Origin: a virus
Lineage: Duplodnaviria; Heunggongvirae; Uroviricota; Caudoviricetes
Reading direction: 5' to 3' (one strand)
Length of the DNA: 37,320 nucleotides
Virus record (IMG/VR): IMGVR_UViG_2534681604_000010
Span: 1 to 37,320 of that record
A program made the translations under genes and the position numbers. The notes below the pieces were generated by a model. The model was not told the origin of the DNA. It did no database searches and saw only the letters and a program-made list of their open reading frames with translations. This document shows, piece by piece, positions 2,345-31,931 of the stretch. Within the stretch, counting starts at the first letter, position 1. Each line of letters begins with the position of its first letter.

Positions 2345-2456
2345 AACTGAAGTTGCCCTGAAAAGAAAATTTTTTGCGTAATGCGCAGAACTTTTCCTCA
2401 AGGCGTCAGTCTTAATTAGTGCCACTGCTTTTCTTTGATGTCCCCAATTTGTGGAG

Positions 2457-2499
2457 CCCATCAACCCCGCCGTTTTGGTTCAAGGTTGATGGGTTTTTT
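2457..2499 (+). terminator. Rho-independent terminator (plus-strand sense)
   Basis: Inverted repeat CCCATCAACC / GGTTGATGGG (2457..2466 and 2484..2493) followed by TTTTTT at 2494..2499. Confidence 0.5.
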
Positions 2500-2579
2500 G
2501 TTGCCTGAAATTTAAGCTGTTTAAAATCATGATGTTAGAAACACTGTTTTTTAACGATGGCGACAAAATGGCGGCAGCG

Positions 2580-23798: not shown

Positions 23799-25565
23799 AT
23801 GAACACCACACTGACACCCGCAGATCTCGATCCCCGTCGGCAGGCCATGCTGCTGTACTTTCAGGGATACCGCGTAGCCCGCATTGCTGAAATGCTGGGC
23901 GAGAAAGTTGCAACCGTTCACAGCTGGAAAAAACGCGACAAGTGGAGTGACTATGGGCCGCTGGATCAGATGCAGCTCACCACCGCCGCACGCTACTGCC
24001 AGCTCATCATGAAGGAGCACAAAGAAGGGAAAGATTTCAAAGAGATTGACCTGCTGGCGCGCCAGTCGGAGCGCCACGCGCGGATCGGCAAGTTTAACAA
24101 TGGCGGCAACGAAGCCGACTTAAACCCTAACGTCGCCAACCGCAATAAAGGCCCACGCCGTCAGCCGGAAAAGAATGTTTTCACCGATGAGCAGATTGAG
24201 AAGCTGGAAGAAATCTTCCATTCCTCCATGTTCAACTACCAGCGCCACTGGTGGGAAGCCGGAAAAACCAACCGCATCCGCAACCTGCTGAAGTCTCGCC
24301 AGATCGGCGCGACCTTCTATTTTGCCCGTGAAGCCCTGATTGACGCCCTGCTTACCGGACGTAACCAGATTTTCCTTTCTGCCAGTAAGGCTCAGGCCCA
24401 CGTCTTTAAACAATACATCATCGACTTCGCCAAAGAAGTCGAGGTGGAGCTAAAAGGCGATCCGATGGTGCTTCCTAACGGAGCCACGCTTTACTTCCTC
24501 GGCACCAATGCCCGCACGGCCCAGAGTTATCACGGCAACCTGTATCTGGATGAATATTTCTGGATACCGAAATTCCAGGAGCTGCGCAAAGTGGCTTCCG
24601 GGATGGCTATTCACAAGAAATGGCGACAAACCTATTTTTCCACGCCATCCAGCCTGACCCACAGTGCTTATCCGTTCTGGTCCGGTGCGCTGTTCAACCG
24701 TGGACGCAACAAAGCTGACAAGGTGGACATCGACCTGTCCCACAGCAATCTGGCCCCCGGCCTACTGTGCGCAGACGGGCAATACCGCCAGATAGTCACC
24801 GTGGAAGATGCGGTGCGCGGCGGCTGTAACCTGTTCGACCTCGACCAGCTGCGCATGGAGTACAGCCCGGACGAATACCAGAACCTGCTGATGTGCGAGT
24901 TCGTGGACGATCTCGCGTCCGTGTTCCCGCTCAGCGAACTGCAGGCGTGCATGGTGGACAGCTGGGAAGTCTGGACCGACTTTCATGCACTGGCCCTGCG
25001 CCCGTTTGGCTGGCGCGAAGTGTGGATCGGTTATGACCCGGCAAAAGGTACGCAGAACGGCGACAGTGCCGGATGCGTGGTGGTGGCTCCGCCAGCCGTG
25101 CCGGGTGGTAAGTTCCGCATTCTTGAGCGTCACCAGTGGCGCGGGATGGACTTCCGCGCCCAGGCTGACGCCATCAAAAAACTGACCGAACAGTATAACG
25201 TGACCTATATCGGTATCGACTCGACCGGCGTCGGTCACGGGGTTTACGAGAACGTGAAAGCGTTCTTTCCTGCCGTCCGAGAGTTTGTCTACAACCCCAA
25301 CGTTAAAAATGCCCTGGTACTCAAGGCCTACGACATTATCAGTCACCGCCGTCTGGAGTTTGACGCCGGACACACCGACATAGCGCAGTCCTTTATGGCA
25401 ATCCGTCGCGCCACCACCGCCAGTGGCAACCGCCCGACCTATGAAGCCAGCCGCAGCGAAGAAGCCAGCCACGCCGATCTGGCCTGGGCAACGATGCACG
25501 CACTGTTTAACGAACCGCTGCAGGGCGAATCCGCCAATACCAGCAATATTGTGGAGATTTTTTGA
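23799..25565 (+). CDS. P: Terminase large (ATPase) subunit gpP
   Basis: 588 aa; P2 P-like; divergent from O. Confidence 0.9.
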   Translation: MNTTLTPADLDPRRQAMLLYFQGYRVARIAEMLGEKVATVHSWKKRDKWSDYGPLDQMQLTTAARYCQLIMKEHKEGKDFKEIDLLARQSERHARIGKFNNGGNEADLNPNVANRNKGPRRQPEKNVFTDEQIEKLEEIFHSSMFNYQRHWWEAGKTNRIRNLLKSRQIGATFYFAREALIDALLTGRNQIFLSASKAQAHVFKQYIIDFAKEVEVELKGDPMVLPNGATLYFLGTNARTAQSYHGNLYLDEYFWIPKFQELRKVASGMAIHKKWRQTYFSTPSSLTHSAYPFWSGALFNRGRNKADKVDIDLSHSNLAPGLLCADGQYRQIVTVEDAVRGGCNLFDLDQLRMEYSPDEYQNLLMCEFVDDLASVFPLSELQACMVDSWEVWTDFHALALRPFGWREVWIGYDPAKGTQNGDSAGCVVVAPPAVPGGKFRILERHQWRGMDFRAQADAIKKLTEQYNVTYIGIDSTGVGHGVYENVKAFFPAVREFVYNPNVKNALVLKAYDIISHRRLEFDAGHTDIAQSFMAIRRATTASGNRPTYEASRSEEASHADLAWATMHALFNEPLQGESANTSNIVEIF

Positions 25566-26593
25566 TGGGAAAGAGTAAGAAAAACCGCGCTGTGTCGACG
25601 AACCAGATTCAGCATAAAAGCCAGACTTCAGCCGAAGCATTCAGCTTTGGCGATCCCGTTCCTGTTCTGGACCGCCGCGAACTGCTGGACTATGTGGAAT
25701 GCGTACAGACAGATCGCTGGTATGAGCCGCCAGTGAGTTTTGACGGACTGGCGCGAACCTTCCGCGCTGCCGTGCATCACAGTTCACCAATTGCGGTGAA
25801 ATGCAACATTCTGACCAGTACCTACATCCCTCACCCGCTTCTCAGCCAGCAGGCTTTTTCACGTTTTGTGCAGGACTATCTGGTATTTGGTAACGCTTAC
25901 CTGGAGAAACGCACGAACCGGTTCGGTGAAGTTATCGCCCTTGAGCCTGCTCTGGCAAAATACACCCGACGTGGGTTAGACCTGGATACCTACTGGTTTG
26001 TGCAATACGGTATGACAACCCAGCCGTATCAGTTCACGAAAGGCAGCATTTTTCATCTGATGGAACCAGATATCAACCAGGAGATCTACGGCCTGCCCGG
26101 TTATCTTTCTGCCATTCCGTCAGCCCTGCTCAACGAGTCCGCCACGCTGTTCCGCCGTAAGTATTACATCAACGGCAGCCATGCAGGCTTCATCATGTAC
26201 ATGACCGACGCCGCGCAGAACCAGGAAGATGTAAACAATCTCCGTAACGCGATGAAAAGCGCCAAAGGTCCAGGCAACTTCCGCAACCTGTTTATGTACT
26301 CGCCTAACGGCAAAAAAGACGGGCTTCAGATTATTCCTCTGTCAGAAGTCGCGGCAAAGGATGAATTTTTGAATATCAAGAACGTGAGCCGGGATGACAT
26401 GATGGCTGCGCACCGCGTGCCGCCGCAAATGATGGGGATTATGCCTAATAATGTTGGAGGGTTTGGGGATGTGGAGAAGGCGAGTAATGTTTTTGTAAGA
26501 AATGAACTAACATCATTGCAAAAAAGATTTGAAGAATTGAATATATGGTTAGGTAAAACTGTTATCAGTTTTGACGCCTACAAACTTGAATAA
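25562..26593 (+). CDS. Q: Portal protein gpQ
   Basis: 343 aa; ATGA overlap with P; P2 Q-like. Confidence 0.9.
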   Translation: MMGKSKKNRAVSTNQIQHKSQTSAEAFSFGDPVPVLDRRELLDYVECVQTDRWYEPPVSFDGLARTFRAAVHHSSPIAVKCNILTSTYIPHPLLSQQAFSRFVQDYLVFGNAYLEKRTNRFGEVIALEPALAKYTRRGLDLDTYWFVQYGMTTQPYQFTKGSIFHLMEPDINQEIYGLPGYLSAIPSALLNESATLFRRKYYINGSHAGFIMYMTDAAQNQEDVNNLRNAMKSAKGPGNFRNLFMYSPNGKKDGLQIIPLSEVAAKDEFLNIKNVSRDDMMAAHRVPPQMMGIMPNNVGGFGDVEKASNVFVRNELTSLQKRFEELNIWLGKTVISFDAYKLE

Positions 26594-26600
26594 TTATTTG

Positions 26601-26620
26601 AAAGGTGCCCTGGCACCTTT
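26601..26620. terminator. Hairpin between convergent Q and the accessory membrane-protein gene (likely bidirectional terminator)
   Basis: AAAGGTGC-CCTG-GCACCTTT perfect 8-bp stem, flanked by T-rich sequence. Confidence 0.45.
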
Positions 26621-27305
26621 ATCTATTGCACCTTGGATTAAACTTCCCTTCCACATAATTTACAACCTCAACAAATTCGCTACCATTTACCTCTCTAAAG
26701 CTAAAAACCCCTTTGCCATCTACGCATTTCTTTAAAACAAAATTTCCGTTATATTCTCCAACTACTATTTTTCCATCCAAGGTTTTCCATAGAACAGATG
26801 CAAACTGATTATGATAATTAATCCCTCCAAGAAAACTAGTAACTGACATAAAGAAAACCGTTAATATGGCATATACGAAATCTATATTAATCAAATCACC
26901 ACTTCGTTCAAATGTTTTGCACAACGACATTACCACCAACCATGAACAAATACCAAAAAGACCACCATTAAGATAGTTAACTAAGTCTTTTTCCCCCCTC
27001 TTAAAACTTAAAAAAACTGAAAATATTGTTATGGCAATAAAAATCCAAAGAACATACTTAATTTTATTAAGTTTAATCGCACCATCATTCAAAATAAAAT
27101 TAAAAACACCTATAATAATACTACCAAAATAGAAAAAAAGCTTTAAAGAAATATTCGCAACACTCGTTAAATCTAATGATATAAGTATTGCTGGATAACC
27201 AAAATAAACGGCCTCACCAAGTTTAAAAAAATATGCCAATATAAATAGCAACACCGTCAGTATTGTTACCAATGGAAAATCAAAGTTATTATTAAATTTA
27301 ACCAT
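26619..27305 (-). CDS. Hypothetical polytopic membrane protein (four to five predicted TM helices plus about 70-aa C-terminal soluble domain)
   Basis: 228-aa ORF in strongly AT-rich DNA between Q and cos; no family recognised. Confidence 0.55.
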   Translation of the reverse strand: MVKFNNNFDFPLVTILTVLLFILAYFFKLGEAVYFGYPAILISLDLTSVANISLKLFFYFGSIIIGVFNFILNDGAIKLNKIKYVLWIFIAITIFSVFLSFKRGEKDLVNYLNGGLFGICSWLVVMSLCKTFERSGDLINIDFVYAILTVFFMSVTSFLGGINYHNQFASVLWKTLDGKIVVGEYNGNFVLKKCVDGKGVFSFREVNGSEFVEVVNYVEGKFNPRCNR

Positions 27306-27360
27306 ACATTACAAGATTCCATTTTATTTTAATAGCGCCCACTTACGCAGACGCCCCATA

Positions 27361-27651
27361 TTATTCTTTAATAAGAGTACCCCAATCTACATCAGATTCT
27401 GCAACTACAATATTAATTGAACATTGTATGCACTCCTCACTTATTCTCGTATAAGTGAAATATCTAGTTTTAACAATACCACTAAACGAAGACCGACTAT
27501 TGTCATTACATATAGAGACAAAATCACCTACATTGGGAAGTAGAAGAAAAGGATTTTCTTCTGACGAACAGCCTACTATATCTCCGTCATCAATTGGTCT
27601 TGTGGACCCTTTAGGCAAGTATTGGTAATCATAGCTATATATCGTCTTCAT
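27361..27651 (-). CDS. Hypothetical small protein, upstream partner of the membrane protein
   Basis: 96-aa ORF, same strand, 55 bp upstream of 26619..27305; AT-rich. Confidence 0.45.
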   Translation of the reverse strand: MKTIYSYDYQYLPKGSTRPIDDGDIVGCSSEENPFLLLPNVGDFVSICNDNSRSSFSGIVKTRYFTYTRISEECIQCSINIVVAESDVDWGTLIKE

Positions 27652-27737: not shown

Positions 27738-27756
27738 CTGTTATGTCATCCCGCGC
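27738..27756. other. Candidate cos cohesive-end site
   Basis: Minus-strand GGCGTGGCGGGGATACGAG; the first 13 nt match the P2/186 cos end as I recall it (GGCG[A/T]GGCGGGGA); surrounded by GC-rich short repeats. Confidence 0.45.
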
Positions 27757-27936
27757 GCTCGTATCCCCGCCACGCCTGCCCGCTTTATGTAGCGGTTTTC
27801 ATGCGCCTGCATGACATAAGCAAAATCCCGCCACTCCTGGCGGGCCTCAGCTAAAACGATCCTCAAACGATCATGCGGATTCATGCGGCATAGACATGCA
27901 CAATCTCCAAAGCGGGCATCGAGACTTTTTGGAAAC

Positions 27937-28548
27937 CTACGTAACCACAGTTAATGTGTGCATCCTGTCTCGAATTGCATCACACGTCTCATCAAAAAGC
28001 TTGGTGATGGTTGTATGGTTCAACTCCGCCTCTTTCCAATAATTTTGCCCGTCAAATTCTGGATCGCTATGCTTAAACGATATTGACTCTGAAAGGCATT
28101 CCTTCCGGAAACGGTCCAAGATTATATAAACCTCTGGTGAGATGAACGGTTTGTTAGATTCAACACTTGTAACAAAAGTGTTAAATGCATCAGAAAAAAC
28201 TTTCAACCTTCTAAATTTTCTCTCTTCAAATGGTTCGTTGGGGTCAACATGATCCAGCGCAGGCCTCAGCTTAAGCACGCTTTCTCTGGTTTCAAACATC
28301 GAATTCCAAATGAGACTATATGCTGATAACTCCTTATCAAAATACGCTTTCGTTACATAAACAGAATTGTCTAACTTAGCCTTTATTCTTTCATTAGTTG
28401 CACTCAGTTGTGATTGAAATTCAGCAATATCTTTGTTTAGCCGCGACTTATATCTTTCTAAATAAACTTTCCCGATCCAAACAAATATGCCAGATGCAAC
28501 AAAAGACACCCCACCCAACGAAGCCAGAACTTTAAAGACTAAATCCAT
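27937..28548 (-). CDS. Hypothetical membrane-anchored protein (N-terminal TM helix, soluble C-terminal domain)
   Basis: 203-aa ORF; AT-rich; located between gene A and cos, the tin/old accessory position of P2. Confidence 0.55.
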   Translation of the reverse strand: MDLVFKVLASLGGVSFVASGIFVWIGKVYLERYKSRLNKDIAEFQSQLSATNERIKAKLDNSVYVTKAYFDKELSAYSLIWNSMFETRESVLKLRPALDHVDPNEPFEERKFRRLKVFSDAFNTFVTSVESNKPFISPEVYIILDRFRKECLSESISFKHSDPEFDGQNYWKEAELNHTTITKLFDETCDAIRDRMHTLTVVT

Positions 28549-28596: not shown

Positions 28597-28857
28597 TTAA
28601 TCAAACAGGGGATAATTCGCGTCAACCTCATCACTTCTCTGCTCTACCCTAGTGACTTCCATCAAAAACCCCAGGCCGTCATATAGCGAAACGGGGAATT
28701 CCAGCTCAAGCCAGAAGCAGTCTTCATAGATGCGGCCCAACCAAAAACCTCCGCCACACTCCTTTGGGCGTTGAAAGAAGACCCAGTCGCCAAGGGTTAA
28801 ACGTTCCAGCACCTAGCCCCGATAAATAATCTGGTGATTACTGTCTTTTTTACCCAT
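28597..28857 (-). pseudogene. Small ORF interrupted by an in-frame TAG (ATG 28857 ... TAG 28813..28815 ... resumes 28812)
   Basis: RBS GAGG upstream of ATG 28857; 14 codons, amber stop, then 71 further codons in the same frame. Confidence 0.35.
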
Positions 28858-28930
28858 GGCTAACGCCTCGCTACTCTCGTTGTTCAACCTTGCTGACGTC
28901 AGATTCAAGTTCTTACATCAGGAACGTTCC

Positions 28931-29164
28931 TTAGTGCAGCCAGCTGTCGTCTTCCCAAACCTGTTGCATAATTTCCATCACCCGCTTTTTGTCTTCATCA
29001 AGCTTTAAGCCACTCAGCTCAACGCCGTTTGCCGACCCTTTACGGATGCGGATAGCGGTCTTGGGATAGATGGGTTGCAGGTTGCGGTAAAGCTCGGACT
29101 CCAGAGCGTCCAGGGTAGACTGGCTAATCTTCTGCTCTTTATCGATCATTATTTCAATGCGCAT
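28931..29164 (-). CDS. DinI-family protein
   Basis: MRIEIMIDKEQKISQSTLDALESELYRNLQ...KKRVMEIMQQVWEDDSWLH resembles E. coli DinI (about 80 aa) as recalled; internal Met chosen as the start. Confidence 0.75.
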   Translation of the reverse strand: MRIEIMIDKEQKISQSTLDALESELYRNLQPIYPKTAIRIRKGSANGVELSGLKLDEDKKRVMEIMQQVWEDDSWLH

Positions 29165-29174
29165 AAAAGTCACC

Positions 29175-29363
29175 TCAGCTGATGACATCCATTGAGCGGT
29201 TGTATTCGTGGCTTCTGATTTTTGCCATGAGTTCATCAGTCAATTCAGAAACCCACTGCAGGGCCAGCCCCTTCTCTTCATCACTACACTCACTAGCCGC
29301 TACAAGCTTAAGAAAAAAATCAATGCGCTGGAGCTTCAAAGACTCCAAAAAATAGTCCTGCAT
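29175..29363 (-). CDS. Small acidic protein, first gene of the LexA-box operon
   Basis: 62 aa from the internal Met with strong RBS AGGAGG; sits between the LexA box and the DinI-like gene. Confidence 0.45.
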   Translation of the reverse strand: MQDYFLESLKLQRIDFFLKLVAASECSDEEKGLALQWVSELTDELMAKIRSHEYNRSMDVIS

Positions 29364-29404: not shown

Positions 29405-29424
29405 CACTGTTTATATTTACAGTA
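29405..29424. promoter_or_regulatory. LexA operator (SOS box) CACTGTTTATATTTACAGTA with adjacent half-site-like TACTGTATAG
   Basis: Canonical CTGT-N8-ACAG palindrome read from the sequence, upstream of the small-ORF/DinI-like gene pair. Confidence 0.65.
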
Positions 29425-29516
29425 TATGATAATCTTACTGATGTAAAACGTTTTTTTACGTTCATCAGCCTGATATGCCTGGTATTATTAAGAGCACGAA
29501 TTGTTAACCCGCGTAA

Positions 29517-31931
29517 TTAATACAGGTTCCGCCACTTATCATCTTCCTGCAAACGCTGGTTCCGATAGAAGACACGCAGGCCTGCTCCTGACGGAATACT
29601 GCCGCCGCGAAGGAGTAAATCGACCTCTTTCTCGCTGCCATCAAATCCTCTGGACTTCAGTTCATAGACGAGCTGCTGTCGTTGATGGTCTGTAATTCGC
29701 TGTTTGTAGTCTCTACGCCGTTTCGGTTTCACCAGGCGTAACCTTGCAGCCAGTTCCCGGCGCTCTTTTTTGTTCATACTGTGCAGGTAATCGTGCAACT
29801 CCTTGTCATCCATGTGGGTAATGTCCGTTCTGGTATCCCCATCAGCTGATTTGTCTTTCCCTTGTTGGTTCAAATTTTCAGCAAGGGGACAGTTATTGCC
29901 ACGAGTCCAAGGGGCGCAAGCGCCCTGGTCGGCTGCCGCCTCCTGAACGTCAACGGCCTTACGAACCATTTTCCACTTCACTGCATGAGTGCAGATCTTG
30001 CCCTCTGCAATGGGTGACCAGATGCCATAAATACGAATACCGTGATCACCATAGGCGGTCGGCTCTTCGTTGATTTCATAAGCGGTTCTGATCAAGTGAT
30101 ATTTGCGGGGAACCAACACGCCGCCCTGCTTCATAATGTAGGTGGCAAAACAGCCAGCATCAGCAGCAGCCAGAATGGCATCAAGACGCGGATCATCCAG
30201 TACCGGCGCACCTGCTTTTTTGTCACCCTGCTGCCTTGCCGCCTGACCAGCCAGCAATCGCAGTTCACGGTAAGCCTGACGCCCCGGAATGCCAAAGAAG
30301 CGGAATTGCTGAACACGATGCAGAGACGCCCAGGCATTAACGTATTCAGCGTTATCACGCAGGGATTTACCCGTTTCCTTGCTGATCTCGCCAGCCAGAC
30401 CACGCCCGTCAATGTTCTTACTGATGTATTTCGCGATGTAGCTTGTCGGCGTTCCTTTGCGCGGGTTAATCAGCTCAGACTTAAAGCGTGGCCCCGTGTT
30501 ATTGCCCAGTTCCTCGCGGTCTTCACGGATGGCAAACTTACGCAGTAATGCAGTGATGGCGCGGCGGTCTTTTTTACGCATGAAGCACATGAGATGCCAG
30601 TGCACAGTACCGTCATGATGCGGCTCAGCCACCCGCACGCCATACCACCGCAATCCGGCTTTGTGCATCGCCTTACGAAATGCAGCAAACATGCCGACCA
30701 GATAATCACTGCTTTGTCTTACCGTCGCATTTGTCCAGGTCGGGTTTGGTCTGCCGTTATTGAGCGTGGAATGGAAACGTGACGGACAGGTGATGGTGTA
30801 GAAAACGGCGCAGTCACCGCGCATTTCCGCGATAAGCTCCAGACCTTTAACGCAGGCCATCATCTCATTGCGGCGATGTGCCGGGTTGCTGCTGCTGGCG
30901 TTTACCACATCTTCCATATCCAGCGTGTCTCCGTCTTCGTTCACCAGTTCATGAGAACGGAAAAACTCCAGCGACTTGCGGCGCTGCTCACGTTTATGCG
31001 TCACTGCTTCATAGCTGACATAGGGAGATGCTTTTTTGCTGACCAGACAGACAGCACGCAACTGCTCTTCCCGCCATTCGCAACGCATCTTCCACAATTT
31101 TCGATACCACCAGTCGGCGCAAAGCATACGTGCCAGCGAACCCGGTATGAGTTCATAGGGCACAGGTTTGCGGCGGTTTCTTTTCCGACGAAGTTTCTCA
31201 AACGCAGGCGGGATAACATCCAGACGCAGGGTTTCCGCAGCCACCTTTTCCCATGTCTTGCGGATTTCTTCTGGCTTAACGTCATCGGTGGCGTACAAAT
31301 CACCACAAGCGGCCTCAAGACACATGCTCATATGCGCTGCTACCAGGGTGGACAGGCGTTTCACCTGATCCTGGCTCATTTCAGGCAGGATCAGCAGCCC
31401 CTCCAGCCCTTGATGGCTTGCCATAAAACGGAAAGAAACAGATAGCTGACTGTCACGTACACAATCCAGTCGCTCCAGACATGGCTTAATCGTCTCACGC
31501 AAATAGCGGGAATAAGCCTTTGGCCTGCCCAGGCTGCTGAAGTATTCGATACGTTGCATCAGCGGCTTGCTGATATGAGAAGGCTGGGCGCTGACATCTG
31601 CCAGAATGACCATGTCCGGGTTAAAACGCTGCTGCTCATGCGCCAGCTTTGCCCGGCTAATGAGCTTATCCTGCTCCATTTCGCGCTGGACAGGATCACG
31701 GGATTCATTAAAGAAATAACGCTCCCAGACCTGCTCACTCAGTGCCTCGCGGCGCAGTTGTTCCTGCTCGTTATCGGCAGCGTACAGAGTGATCAGGTTT
31801 GAAAGTGCAGACTCCGGCGCAACTTCCGCCGGATCCAGATAAGGGTTAATGGCCTTTTTCGGGCCGTTCCATGAAAATGCTGCGGCAGCCTCGTTAAAGC
31901 CGCTAGAGTTGCTCATATCGTCATGACTCAT
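29517..31931 (-). CDS. A: Replication initiation protein gpA (rolling-circle HUH endonuclease family)
   Basis: 804 aa; contains a GTVHWH motif; P2/186 A position. Confidence 0.85.

Follow-up and report, generated by a model that had tools for sequence, protein, structure and literature searches.

Recent amber allele of p86, a small LexA-associated phage gene, in a P2-like Escherichia coli prophage: a probable loss of function

Of the phage genes under SOS control, those that have been characterised (Tum, GfoA/GftA, AntC and DinI) control either induction or RecA activity. The prophages Gifsy-1, -2 and -3 carry a LexA-controlled operon of the order dinI-gftA/gfoA/gfhA-irsA, in which the small middle gene encodes an antirepressor, and in PSP3 and Fels-2 the tum gene known from coliphage 186 is split (Lemire et al. 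2011, PMC3121763). Here we describe a locus that can be compared with both, on the minus strand of the IMG/VR virus record IMGVR_UViG_2534681604_000010 (positions 1 to 37,320; this whole stretch of 37,320 nucleotides is called the window). This stretch is a complete E. coli prophage that is P2-like (Peduoviridae, Cartapus/Elveevirus-like) and adjoins the host rybB gene; the gene under study, p86, is interrupted in it by a TAG at codon 15. Very probably, this is a recent loss-of-function allele, generated by a C>T change at Gln15, of an SOS-controlled phage accessory gene that lies in a 186-like LexA operon.

The p86 gene is preceded by a GAGG at 28869..28866, 8 nucleotides upstream of its ATG (28857..28855), and the minus-strand reading is GAGG-N8-ATG GGT AAA AAA GAC AGT AAT CAC CAG ATT ATT TAT CGG GGC TAG GTG CTG, in which the 14 codons from ATG to GGC (MGKKDSNHQIIYRG) are followed by the TAG at 28815..28813 and the GTG at 28812..28810. 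From this GTG the same frame runs for 71 codons in all, to a TAA at 28599..28597, and the table of open reading frames (ORFs) holds the two halves as separate ORFs, at 28813..28908 and 28597..28812. The original prediction, made from the letters of the window, had described this layout of ribosome-binding site, 14 codons, TAG and 71 codons, and every one of its coordinates agrees with ours. The frame that is open from start to stop in the p86 family is closed in the window, by the TAG at codon 15.

Alignment with intact homologues, proposed in the original prediction as a check, revealed that the TAG does replace a sense codon. In Escherichia phage Cartapus, a member of the Peduoviridae whose DNA is 97.6% identical, the same 261 nucleotides form an uninterrupted, annotated coding sequence of 86 amino acids, with CAG at codon 15. 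At position 43 of the alignment the window and the near-identical prophages L001 and L002 have T; Cartapus and six intact E. coli alleles have C. No second lesion was found downstream of the TAG, and the suggestion that p86 is a recently inactivated gene, in which TAG stands in place of the CAG (Gln15) of an intact 86-amino-acid gene, is borne out.

The allele is not confined to the window. A survey of 5,426 complete E. coli genomes found the p86 locus in 41, and 21 of these are 100% identical to the window over a 69-nucleotide probe centred on the TAG. These 21 genomes represent about 15 independent strains (seven look like one dog-clinic clone), obtained in unrelated projects and different countries from humans, pigs, chickens, dogs and water. 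The remaining 20 carriers differ from the probe by at least one base and have a coding sequence annotated across the site; the six that were fetched (N96, 28A18CPO003A, WEC, CEA212U, TW10598 and tcmA_3) all have CAG and an open frame. Compared with the window coding sequence, N96 differs only at Gln15 and S57L, and 28A18CPO003A only at Gln15 and L20F, indicating that the immediate ancestor was one C>T step away from the amber allele. The amber allele occurs with at least three downstream cargos (the 96- and 228-amino-acid genes of the window, a DUF4145 gene in L001 and the retron St85 system in L002), and has evidently circulated and recombined. Since only a single base separates the window from the intact alleles, a sequencing or assembly error at that base had to be considered; finding the same base in 21 complete genomes, which differ in project, host and country and are unrelated in these respects, excludes a base-calling error and refutes this explanation for practical purposes.

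In two of the fetched genomes, TW10598 and tcmA_3 (L043 and L044; protein P0003), the codon at the p86 start is AAG, not ATG, and the coding sequence is annotated from an upstream in-frame start, with a length of 103-105 amino acids. This upstream frame (…ARLNNESSEALA) is open in the window back to a TTG at 28908, and a stop closes it in Enterobacter bugandensis (L006). The features of the window are collected in Table 1.

Table 1. Coordinates of p86, its operon and neighbouring features in the window
Feature	Position	Strand	Basis or remark
p86, 86-codon gene of phrog_2100 with codon-15 amber; pseudogene or hypomorph	28597..28857	-	Sequence, intact orthologues, 64 homologues
TAG replacing CAG (Gln15), single C>T transition	28813..28815	-	Alignment with intact alleles
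N-terminal 14 codons, MGKKDSNHQIIYRG, all translatable from the native start; conserved Q9, Y12 and R13, predicted beta-1	28816..28857	-	Conservation, AlphaFold2 model
Residual 71-codon ORF from the GTG abutting the TAG; possible termination-reinitiation product	28597..28812	-	Weak Shine-Dalgarno sequence, -5.0 kcal/mol
47-codon TTG-start ORF, WP_001726291, annotated by PGAP in some amber-allele genomes	28597..28740	-	Strong GGAGG Shine-Dalgarno sequence, -10.2 kcal/mol
dinI-family gene, 77 amino acids, immediately upstream of p86	28931..29164	-	PF06183, E 2e-24; 43% identical to the C-terminal half of 186 Tum
orf63, 62 amino acids, annotated hypothetical; homologue of the antirepressor (N-terminal) half of 186 Tum	29175..29363	-	Smith-Waterman alignment
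LexA box, TACTGTAAATATAAACAGTG, between gpA and orf63	29424..29405	-	Perfect CTGT-N8-ACAG core at 29407..29422
Putative SOS promoter	29405..29447	-	-35 TTTACA at 29447..29442, 17-nucleotide spacer, -10 TACTGT overlapping the LexA box
p203, phrog_26391; N-terminal hydrophobic segment, then probable coiled-coil	27937..28548	-	Cargo between p86 and p47
p47, phrog_28685, backbone gene	27741..27884	-	Directly after p86 in relatives without p203
gpA, replication endonuclease	29517..31931	-	One edge of the P2 gpA-gpQ hotspot
gpQ, portal protein	25562..26593	+	Opposite edge of the P2 gpA-gpQ hotspot
RybB small RNA, marking the host chromosome beside the prophage end	2424..2502	+	Rfam RF00110, 103.5 bits

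The gene belongs to a real and constrained family. The Cartapus orthologue, 93% identical to the conceptual translation of the window gene, matches phrog_2100 with an E value of 4.8e-40 (residues 1-84 on positions 1-84 of the 85 in the profile), making p86 a member of phrog_2100. When 5.8 billion proteins were searched, 64 relatives came up, mostly of 84-86 amino acids, from Citrobacter, Enterobacter, Raoultella, Salmonella, Pantoea, Serratia, Cronobacter and other hosts. An exhaustive hidden Markov model search against 1.84 billion cluster representatives yielded no more than 107 members, including many fragments; this is a small family, with essentially no members outside the Enterobacterales and their phages. 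In 43 full-length members M1, Y12, R13, F28, G36, G37, G41 and F48 are invariant, and Q9, G14, W25 and the block FFQRPKECGGG(Y/F)WLG nearly so, while position 15 is occupied by Q, E, K or D. Where dS was measurable, dN/dS across the family was 0.03-0.21. The AlphaFold2 model (mean pLDDT 83) has four beta-strands (residues 8-11, 25-29, 38-44 and 47-50), a helix (58-75) and a C-terminal tail of low confidence. The conservation at the N-terminus means that the 14 residues ahead of the amber are a conserved part of the p86 protein.

No relative of known function or structure can be detected for p86, which is a fold-orphan: neither p86 nor the 43 family members matched Pfam, NCBIfam or PADLOC, remote members of about 103 amino acids had no Pfam domains either, a sequence-profile search of the PDB with p86 gave no match, and literature searches with the peptide and with accession numbers returned nothing. 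One homologue (P0057) bears the UniRef name DUF2829 (Tad2); we rejected this assignment, as none of the 43 scanned members matched DUF2829 at E <= 1. The C-terminal tail (region 28597..28630), acidic and aromatic and predicted to be flexible, has the conserved pattern F-D-x-[N/D]-[F/Y]-x-L-[F/T] at its extreme end, and may resemble the acidic/aromatic docking peptides of which the SSB C-terminus and clamp-binding motifs are examples.

If translation starts at ATG 28857, ribosomes would release a peptide of 14 residues, and the amber allele would be a null or a strong hypomorph. It could be argued that the allele still acts, as a functional hypomorph or neomorph, by reinitiation at GTG 28812 or by a start at TTG 28740, giving a protein of 71 or 47 amino acids. 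The TAG and the GTG directly abut, the TTG is preceded by a strong GGAGG Shine-Dalgarno sequence and its ORF is annotated by PGAP, the amber allele is common (21 of the 41 genomes), nothing downstream of the TAG has decayed, and a Citrobacter amalonaticus protein of 71 amino acids (P0024, seen here as a protein entry) starts at the equivalent residue. However, no homologue natively lacks the N-terminus. Here M1, Q9, Y12, R13 and G14 vary little or not at all, and strand beta-1 of the predicted sheet is made up of residues 8-11. The Shine-Dalgarno sequence before the GTG is weak, the one before the TTG arises incidentally from the codons for the conserved Gly-Gly-Gly, and the lack of later lesions is explained equally well by a young allele. 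Both restart products would lack beta-1 together with Q9, Y12 and R13, and are probably inactive; the product from TTG 28740 would also lose beta-2 and most of the GGG loop. We consider it unlikely that they retain function, and a functional restart allele improbable to the same degree. Nor did two tiny genes, the other option of the original prediction, hold up as the native state, although the GTG restart product stays conceivable. Homologues that start at the downstream GTG and lack the upstream 14 codons, named in the original prediction as what would refute it, were not found: all 43 full-length homologues carry these codons.

CAG>TAG is the exact change that a glnV(supE) suppressor or near-cognate Gln decoding would reverse. 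The UAG might thus be read as Gln, by programmed or suppressor-dependent read-through, yielding a regulated, low level of the wild-type protein, and the base 3' of the stop is a purine, as this explanation would also have it. Against it, the TAG occurs only in one shallow lineage with identical flanks and a sense codon is present in all diverged homologues, which leads us to reject programmed read-through; the window carries no tRNA, hence no suppressor tRNA there; and other broken alleles have TGA, TAA or frameshifts elsewhere, pointing to plain loss of function. Read-through of either kind seems to us very improbable, and a loss-of-function allele remains the preferred explanation of the amber.

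The regulatory context of p86 is the second part of our interpretation. In the window a LexA box, TACTGTAAATATAAACAGTG, with three mismatches to the 20-mer LexA consensus and none in the CTGT/ACAG cores, overlaps a putative sigma-70 promoter upstream of the operon, which is the arrangement expected of a member of the LexA regulon. Downstream of it, orf63 and the N-terminal half of Tum align with a Smith-Waterman score of 57 (shuffled sequences scored 21.4 +/- 4.0, and none of 2000 shuffles scored as high) and the dinI-family gene corresponds to the C-terminal half, indicating that the window carries a split tum. No terminator-like or promoter-like site was found in the dinI-p86 and p86-p203 gaps, and p86 is probably co-transcribed with dinI. 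The proposed operon would then consist of the LexA-box promoter, orf63 (the N-terminal, antirepressor half of Tum), dinI, p86 and, probably, p203.

The association with LexA extends across the family: of 40 loci, about 35 have a conserved LexA box upstream of the p86 homologue. In 21 loci that are not P2-like, and in the P2-like locus L008, a TACTGT-N8-ACAGTA lies 26-44 nucleotides upstream of the p86 start and overlaps a TTGAC-type promoter; these own-start boxes include those of the P22-like phage SE1, SSU5 and Serratia phage BZS1. Two further loci have a box with one mismatch and one has a box at -74. The P2-like loci with the orf63/dinI layout all have their box at the head of the operon, 544-585 nucleotides upstream of p86. 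The cores are kept across loci while the N8 spacer and the flanks vary, and by chance about 1e-3 boxes would be expected per locus, or per 60 nucleotides scanned. About two-thirds of the p86 loci are not P2-like; by tblastn the gene also turns up in Serratia phage BZS1, in SSU5-like phage-plasmids and, where the ea region ends next to xis/int, in P22-like Salmonella phages. What is new here is this near-constant association of p86 homologues with predicted LexA boxes, either at an own promoter or through an orf63(tum-N)-dinI-p86 operon, from which we infer that p86 is SOS-induced in all its contexts.

Next to p86 lies p203, and the original prediction had supposed that p86 might be the toxic partner of this 203-amino-acid protein. 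In favour of a two-gene module, either a toxin/antitoxin or a defence pair, with one partner disabled by the amber, the two genes lie on the same strand with a gap of 48 nucleotides, inside the gpA-gpQ defence hotspot (PMC9122126), and their sizes resemble those of the Gifsy dinI-gftA-irsA operon. Conserved co-occurrence, however, failed as a test: p203 is absent from all 35 p86 loci of other species, being confined to the E. coli/Cartapus group; in other P2-like prophages p86 directly adjoins p47, and elsewhere unrelated genes follow it. In addition, PADLOC has no match for p86 or p203, hhalign gives a probability of only 0.35% for a relationship of p86 to GftA, BLASTP finds p203 unrelated to IrsA or 186 Orf97, and near-identical p203 genes accompany both intact and amber p86 alleles. 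The partnership is therefore not borne out, and we hold a two-gene module to be very doubtful; p203 is inserted cargo and no conserved partner of p86. Moreover, all-against-all clustering of the neighbouring ORFs found no gene that accompanies p86 across its contexts, which argues that p86 acts alone.

Several RefSeq genomes name p203 'valyl-tRNA synthetase'. The apparent sole basis of this misnomer is a sub-threshold match to Val_tRNA-synt_C (E 0.009, 16.7 bits, with a cut-off of 25.9), a domain that forms the coiled-coil tRNA-binding arm. The position of p203 is that of orf97 in 186, whose expression blocks 186 infection, and both proteins begin with a hydrophobic segment.

The p86 gene has been lost repeatedly. 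Independent disruptions were found in 9 of 34 informative loci from GTDB species representatives (L004, L012, L023, L029, L032, L034, L036, L037 and L038): a TGA at W49 in Citrobacter pasteurii, a TAA at codon 49 in Kluyvera sichuanensis, frameshifts in Raoultella, Pantoea, Citrobacter sp. OP27 and Serratia sp. L9, a 3' truncation in Erwinia amylovora and 5' truncations in two loci. A second independent amber, W39 TGG>TAG, is present on a Cartapus-type allele in a metagenome contig (L050, 1384..1647), and the protein database holds several frameshift products of p86. In the P2-like loci with a broken p86 the gpA, orf63, dinI and gpQ genes are full-length, and among E. coli alleles the ratio of nonsynonymous to synonymous polymorphism (pN/pS) is 0.64 for p86, 0 for dinI and 0.12 for orf63. 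Phase variation at homopolymers was considered and rejected, as runs of G9-G10 occur only in two alleles that are already broken, and the runs of intact alleles do not exceed 5.

These losses fit a gene that the lysogen can do without, or that puts it at a disadvantage, and we propose that p86 is repeatedly broken because it is dispensable or costly there. A bolder version is that p86 represents an undescribed, structurally novel family of LexA-controlled single-gene effectors, mobile with its own SOS promoter among P2-like, P22-like, SSU5-like and other temperate phages, and that the amber, present in about 50% of the E. coli carriers, is one of many independent knock-outs that were selected and did not arise by neutral decay. 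We put this forward tentatively, as possible rather than probable; if true, SOS-timed p86 would impose a cost on the lysogen or set off host immunity. The repeated loss is explained equally well by an accessory gene decaying neutrally. The amber itself is an ordinary nonsense polymorphism, a case of routine pseudogenisation.

The interval between gpA and gpQ, in which p86 resides, is the P2 defence hotspot as defined by Rousset et al. (PMC9122126), in whose table the intact p86 protein, WP_000516592, is listed only as 'hypothetical'. Comparison of 35 loci from GTDB species representatives gave a backbone order in P2-like prophages of gpA, orf63, dinI, p86, [slot], p47, [slot], gpQ. The hotspot thus has two cargo slots, p86/p47, which holds p203 here, and p47/gpQ. 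The second slot (26619..27651 in the window) contains the 96-amino-acid gene and a 228-amino-acid gene with several transmembrane segments (phrog_12676 and phrog_35408), neither of which has a PADLOC match; it is this slot that holds the DUF4145 gene in L001 and the retron St85 system in L002. In E. coli AHB30 (L051) and about ten other genomes (H102-H112), decayed remnants lie next to an integrase fragment. Remnants of this type keep only the last ~50 nucleotides of p86, a truncated p203 and p47, and the decayed P2 remnant of L051, with its truncated p203, is uninformative.

The immediate use of these results is a correction of annotation: in RefSeq the amber locus is either empty or annotated as a 47-amino-acid fragment, and it should be recorded as a nonsense pseudogene of an 86-amino-acid gene. 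Beyond this, the analysis adds a small fold-orphan phage family that is consistently wired to LexA and repeatedly lost, a gene that travels with a LexA box between unrelated temperate phages and is placed in the tum/dinI SOS operon in P2-like phages. A further stand-alone SOS member, with a conserved and probably host-directed surface, would make a cheap and well-defined experimental target, for which natural isogenic pairs of intact and amber alleles exist among the sequenced strains, for example N96 versus H1 or UMNF18.

How does the locus compare with those already described? The PHROGs v4 entry for phrog_2100 is recorded without a function or a LexA association, and the window copy differs from the family by its codon-15 amber. 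Early amber alleles of lacI are a classical source of translational 'restart' proteins. In p86, as in those alleles, an early amber is closely followed by possible GTG or TTG starts; unlike the lacI restarts, the p86 restart products are candidates only.

The closest relative in layout is the SOS operon of 186 (p95-LexA box-tum-t95a-orf97). Like it, the window operon directly follows replication gene A, its LexA box overlaps the -10, at the same place where the annotated p95/LexA site of 186 drives tum and orf97, and it has an antirepressor-like N-terminal part (orf63), a DinI-like part and then one or more accessory genes before cos/gpQ. Unlike 186, the window has tum as two separate genes, with p86 and p203 standing where 186 has orf97. 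No p86 homologue was found in 186, either among the tblastn matches or by BLASTP. We also rejected p86 as a homologue of Tum or Orf97, with no BLASTP match to either; the halves of Tum are the neighbouring orf63 and dinI.

The Gifsy operons share with the window a LexA box, dinI, a small protein (about 73 amino acids in Gifsy) and then a protein of about 200 amino acids, and their small protein is a stand-alone, SOS-timed effector, the antirepressor. Membership of p86 among the Gifsy-type antirepressors (GftA/GfoA/GfhA) was rejected, BLASTP giving no match and hhalign a probability of 0.35% against GftA. Unlike Gifsy, the window phage already has a Tum-type antirepressor candidate in orf63, and p86 occurs in phages with unrelated types of repressor. 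Since such a candidate is present, and the most conserved surface of p86 stays invariant even where the phage repressors are unrelated, a conserved host factor is more likely to be the target of p86 than a phage repressor. Intact p86 may thus act alone on such a host factor, at the onset of the SOS response or of prophage induction.
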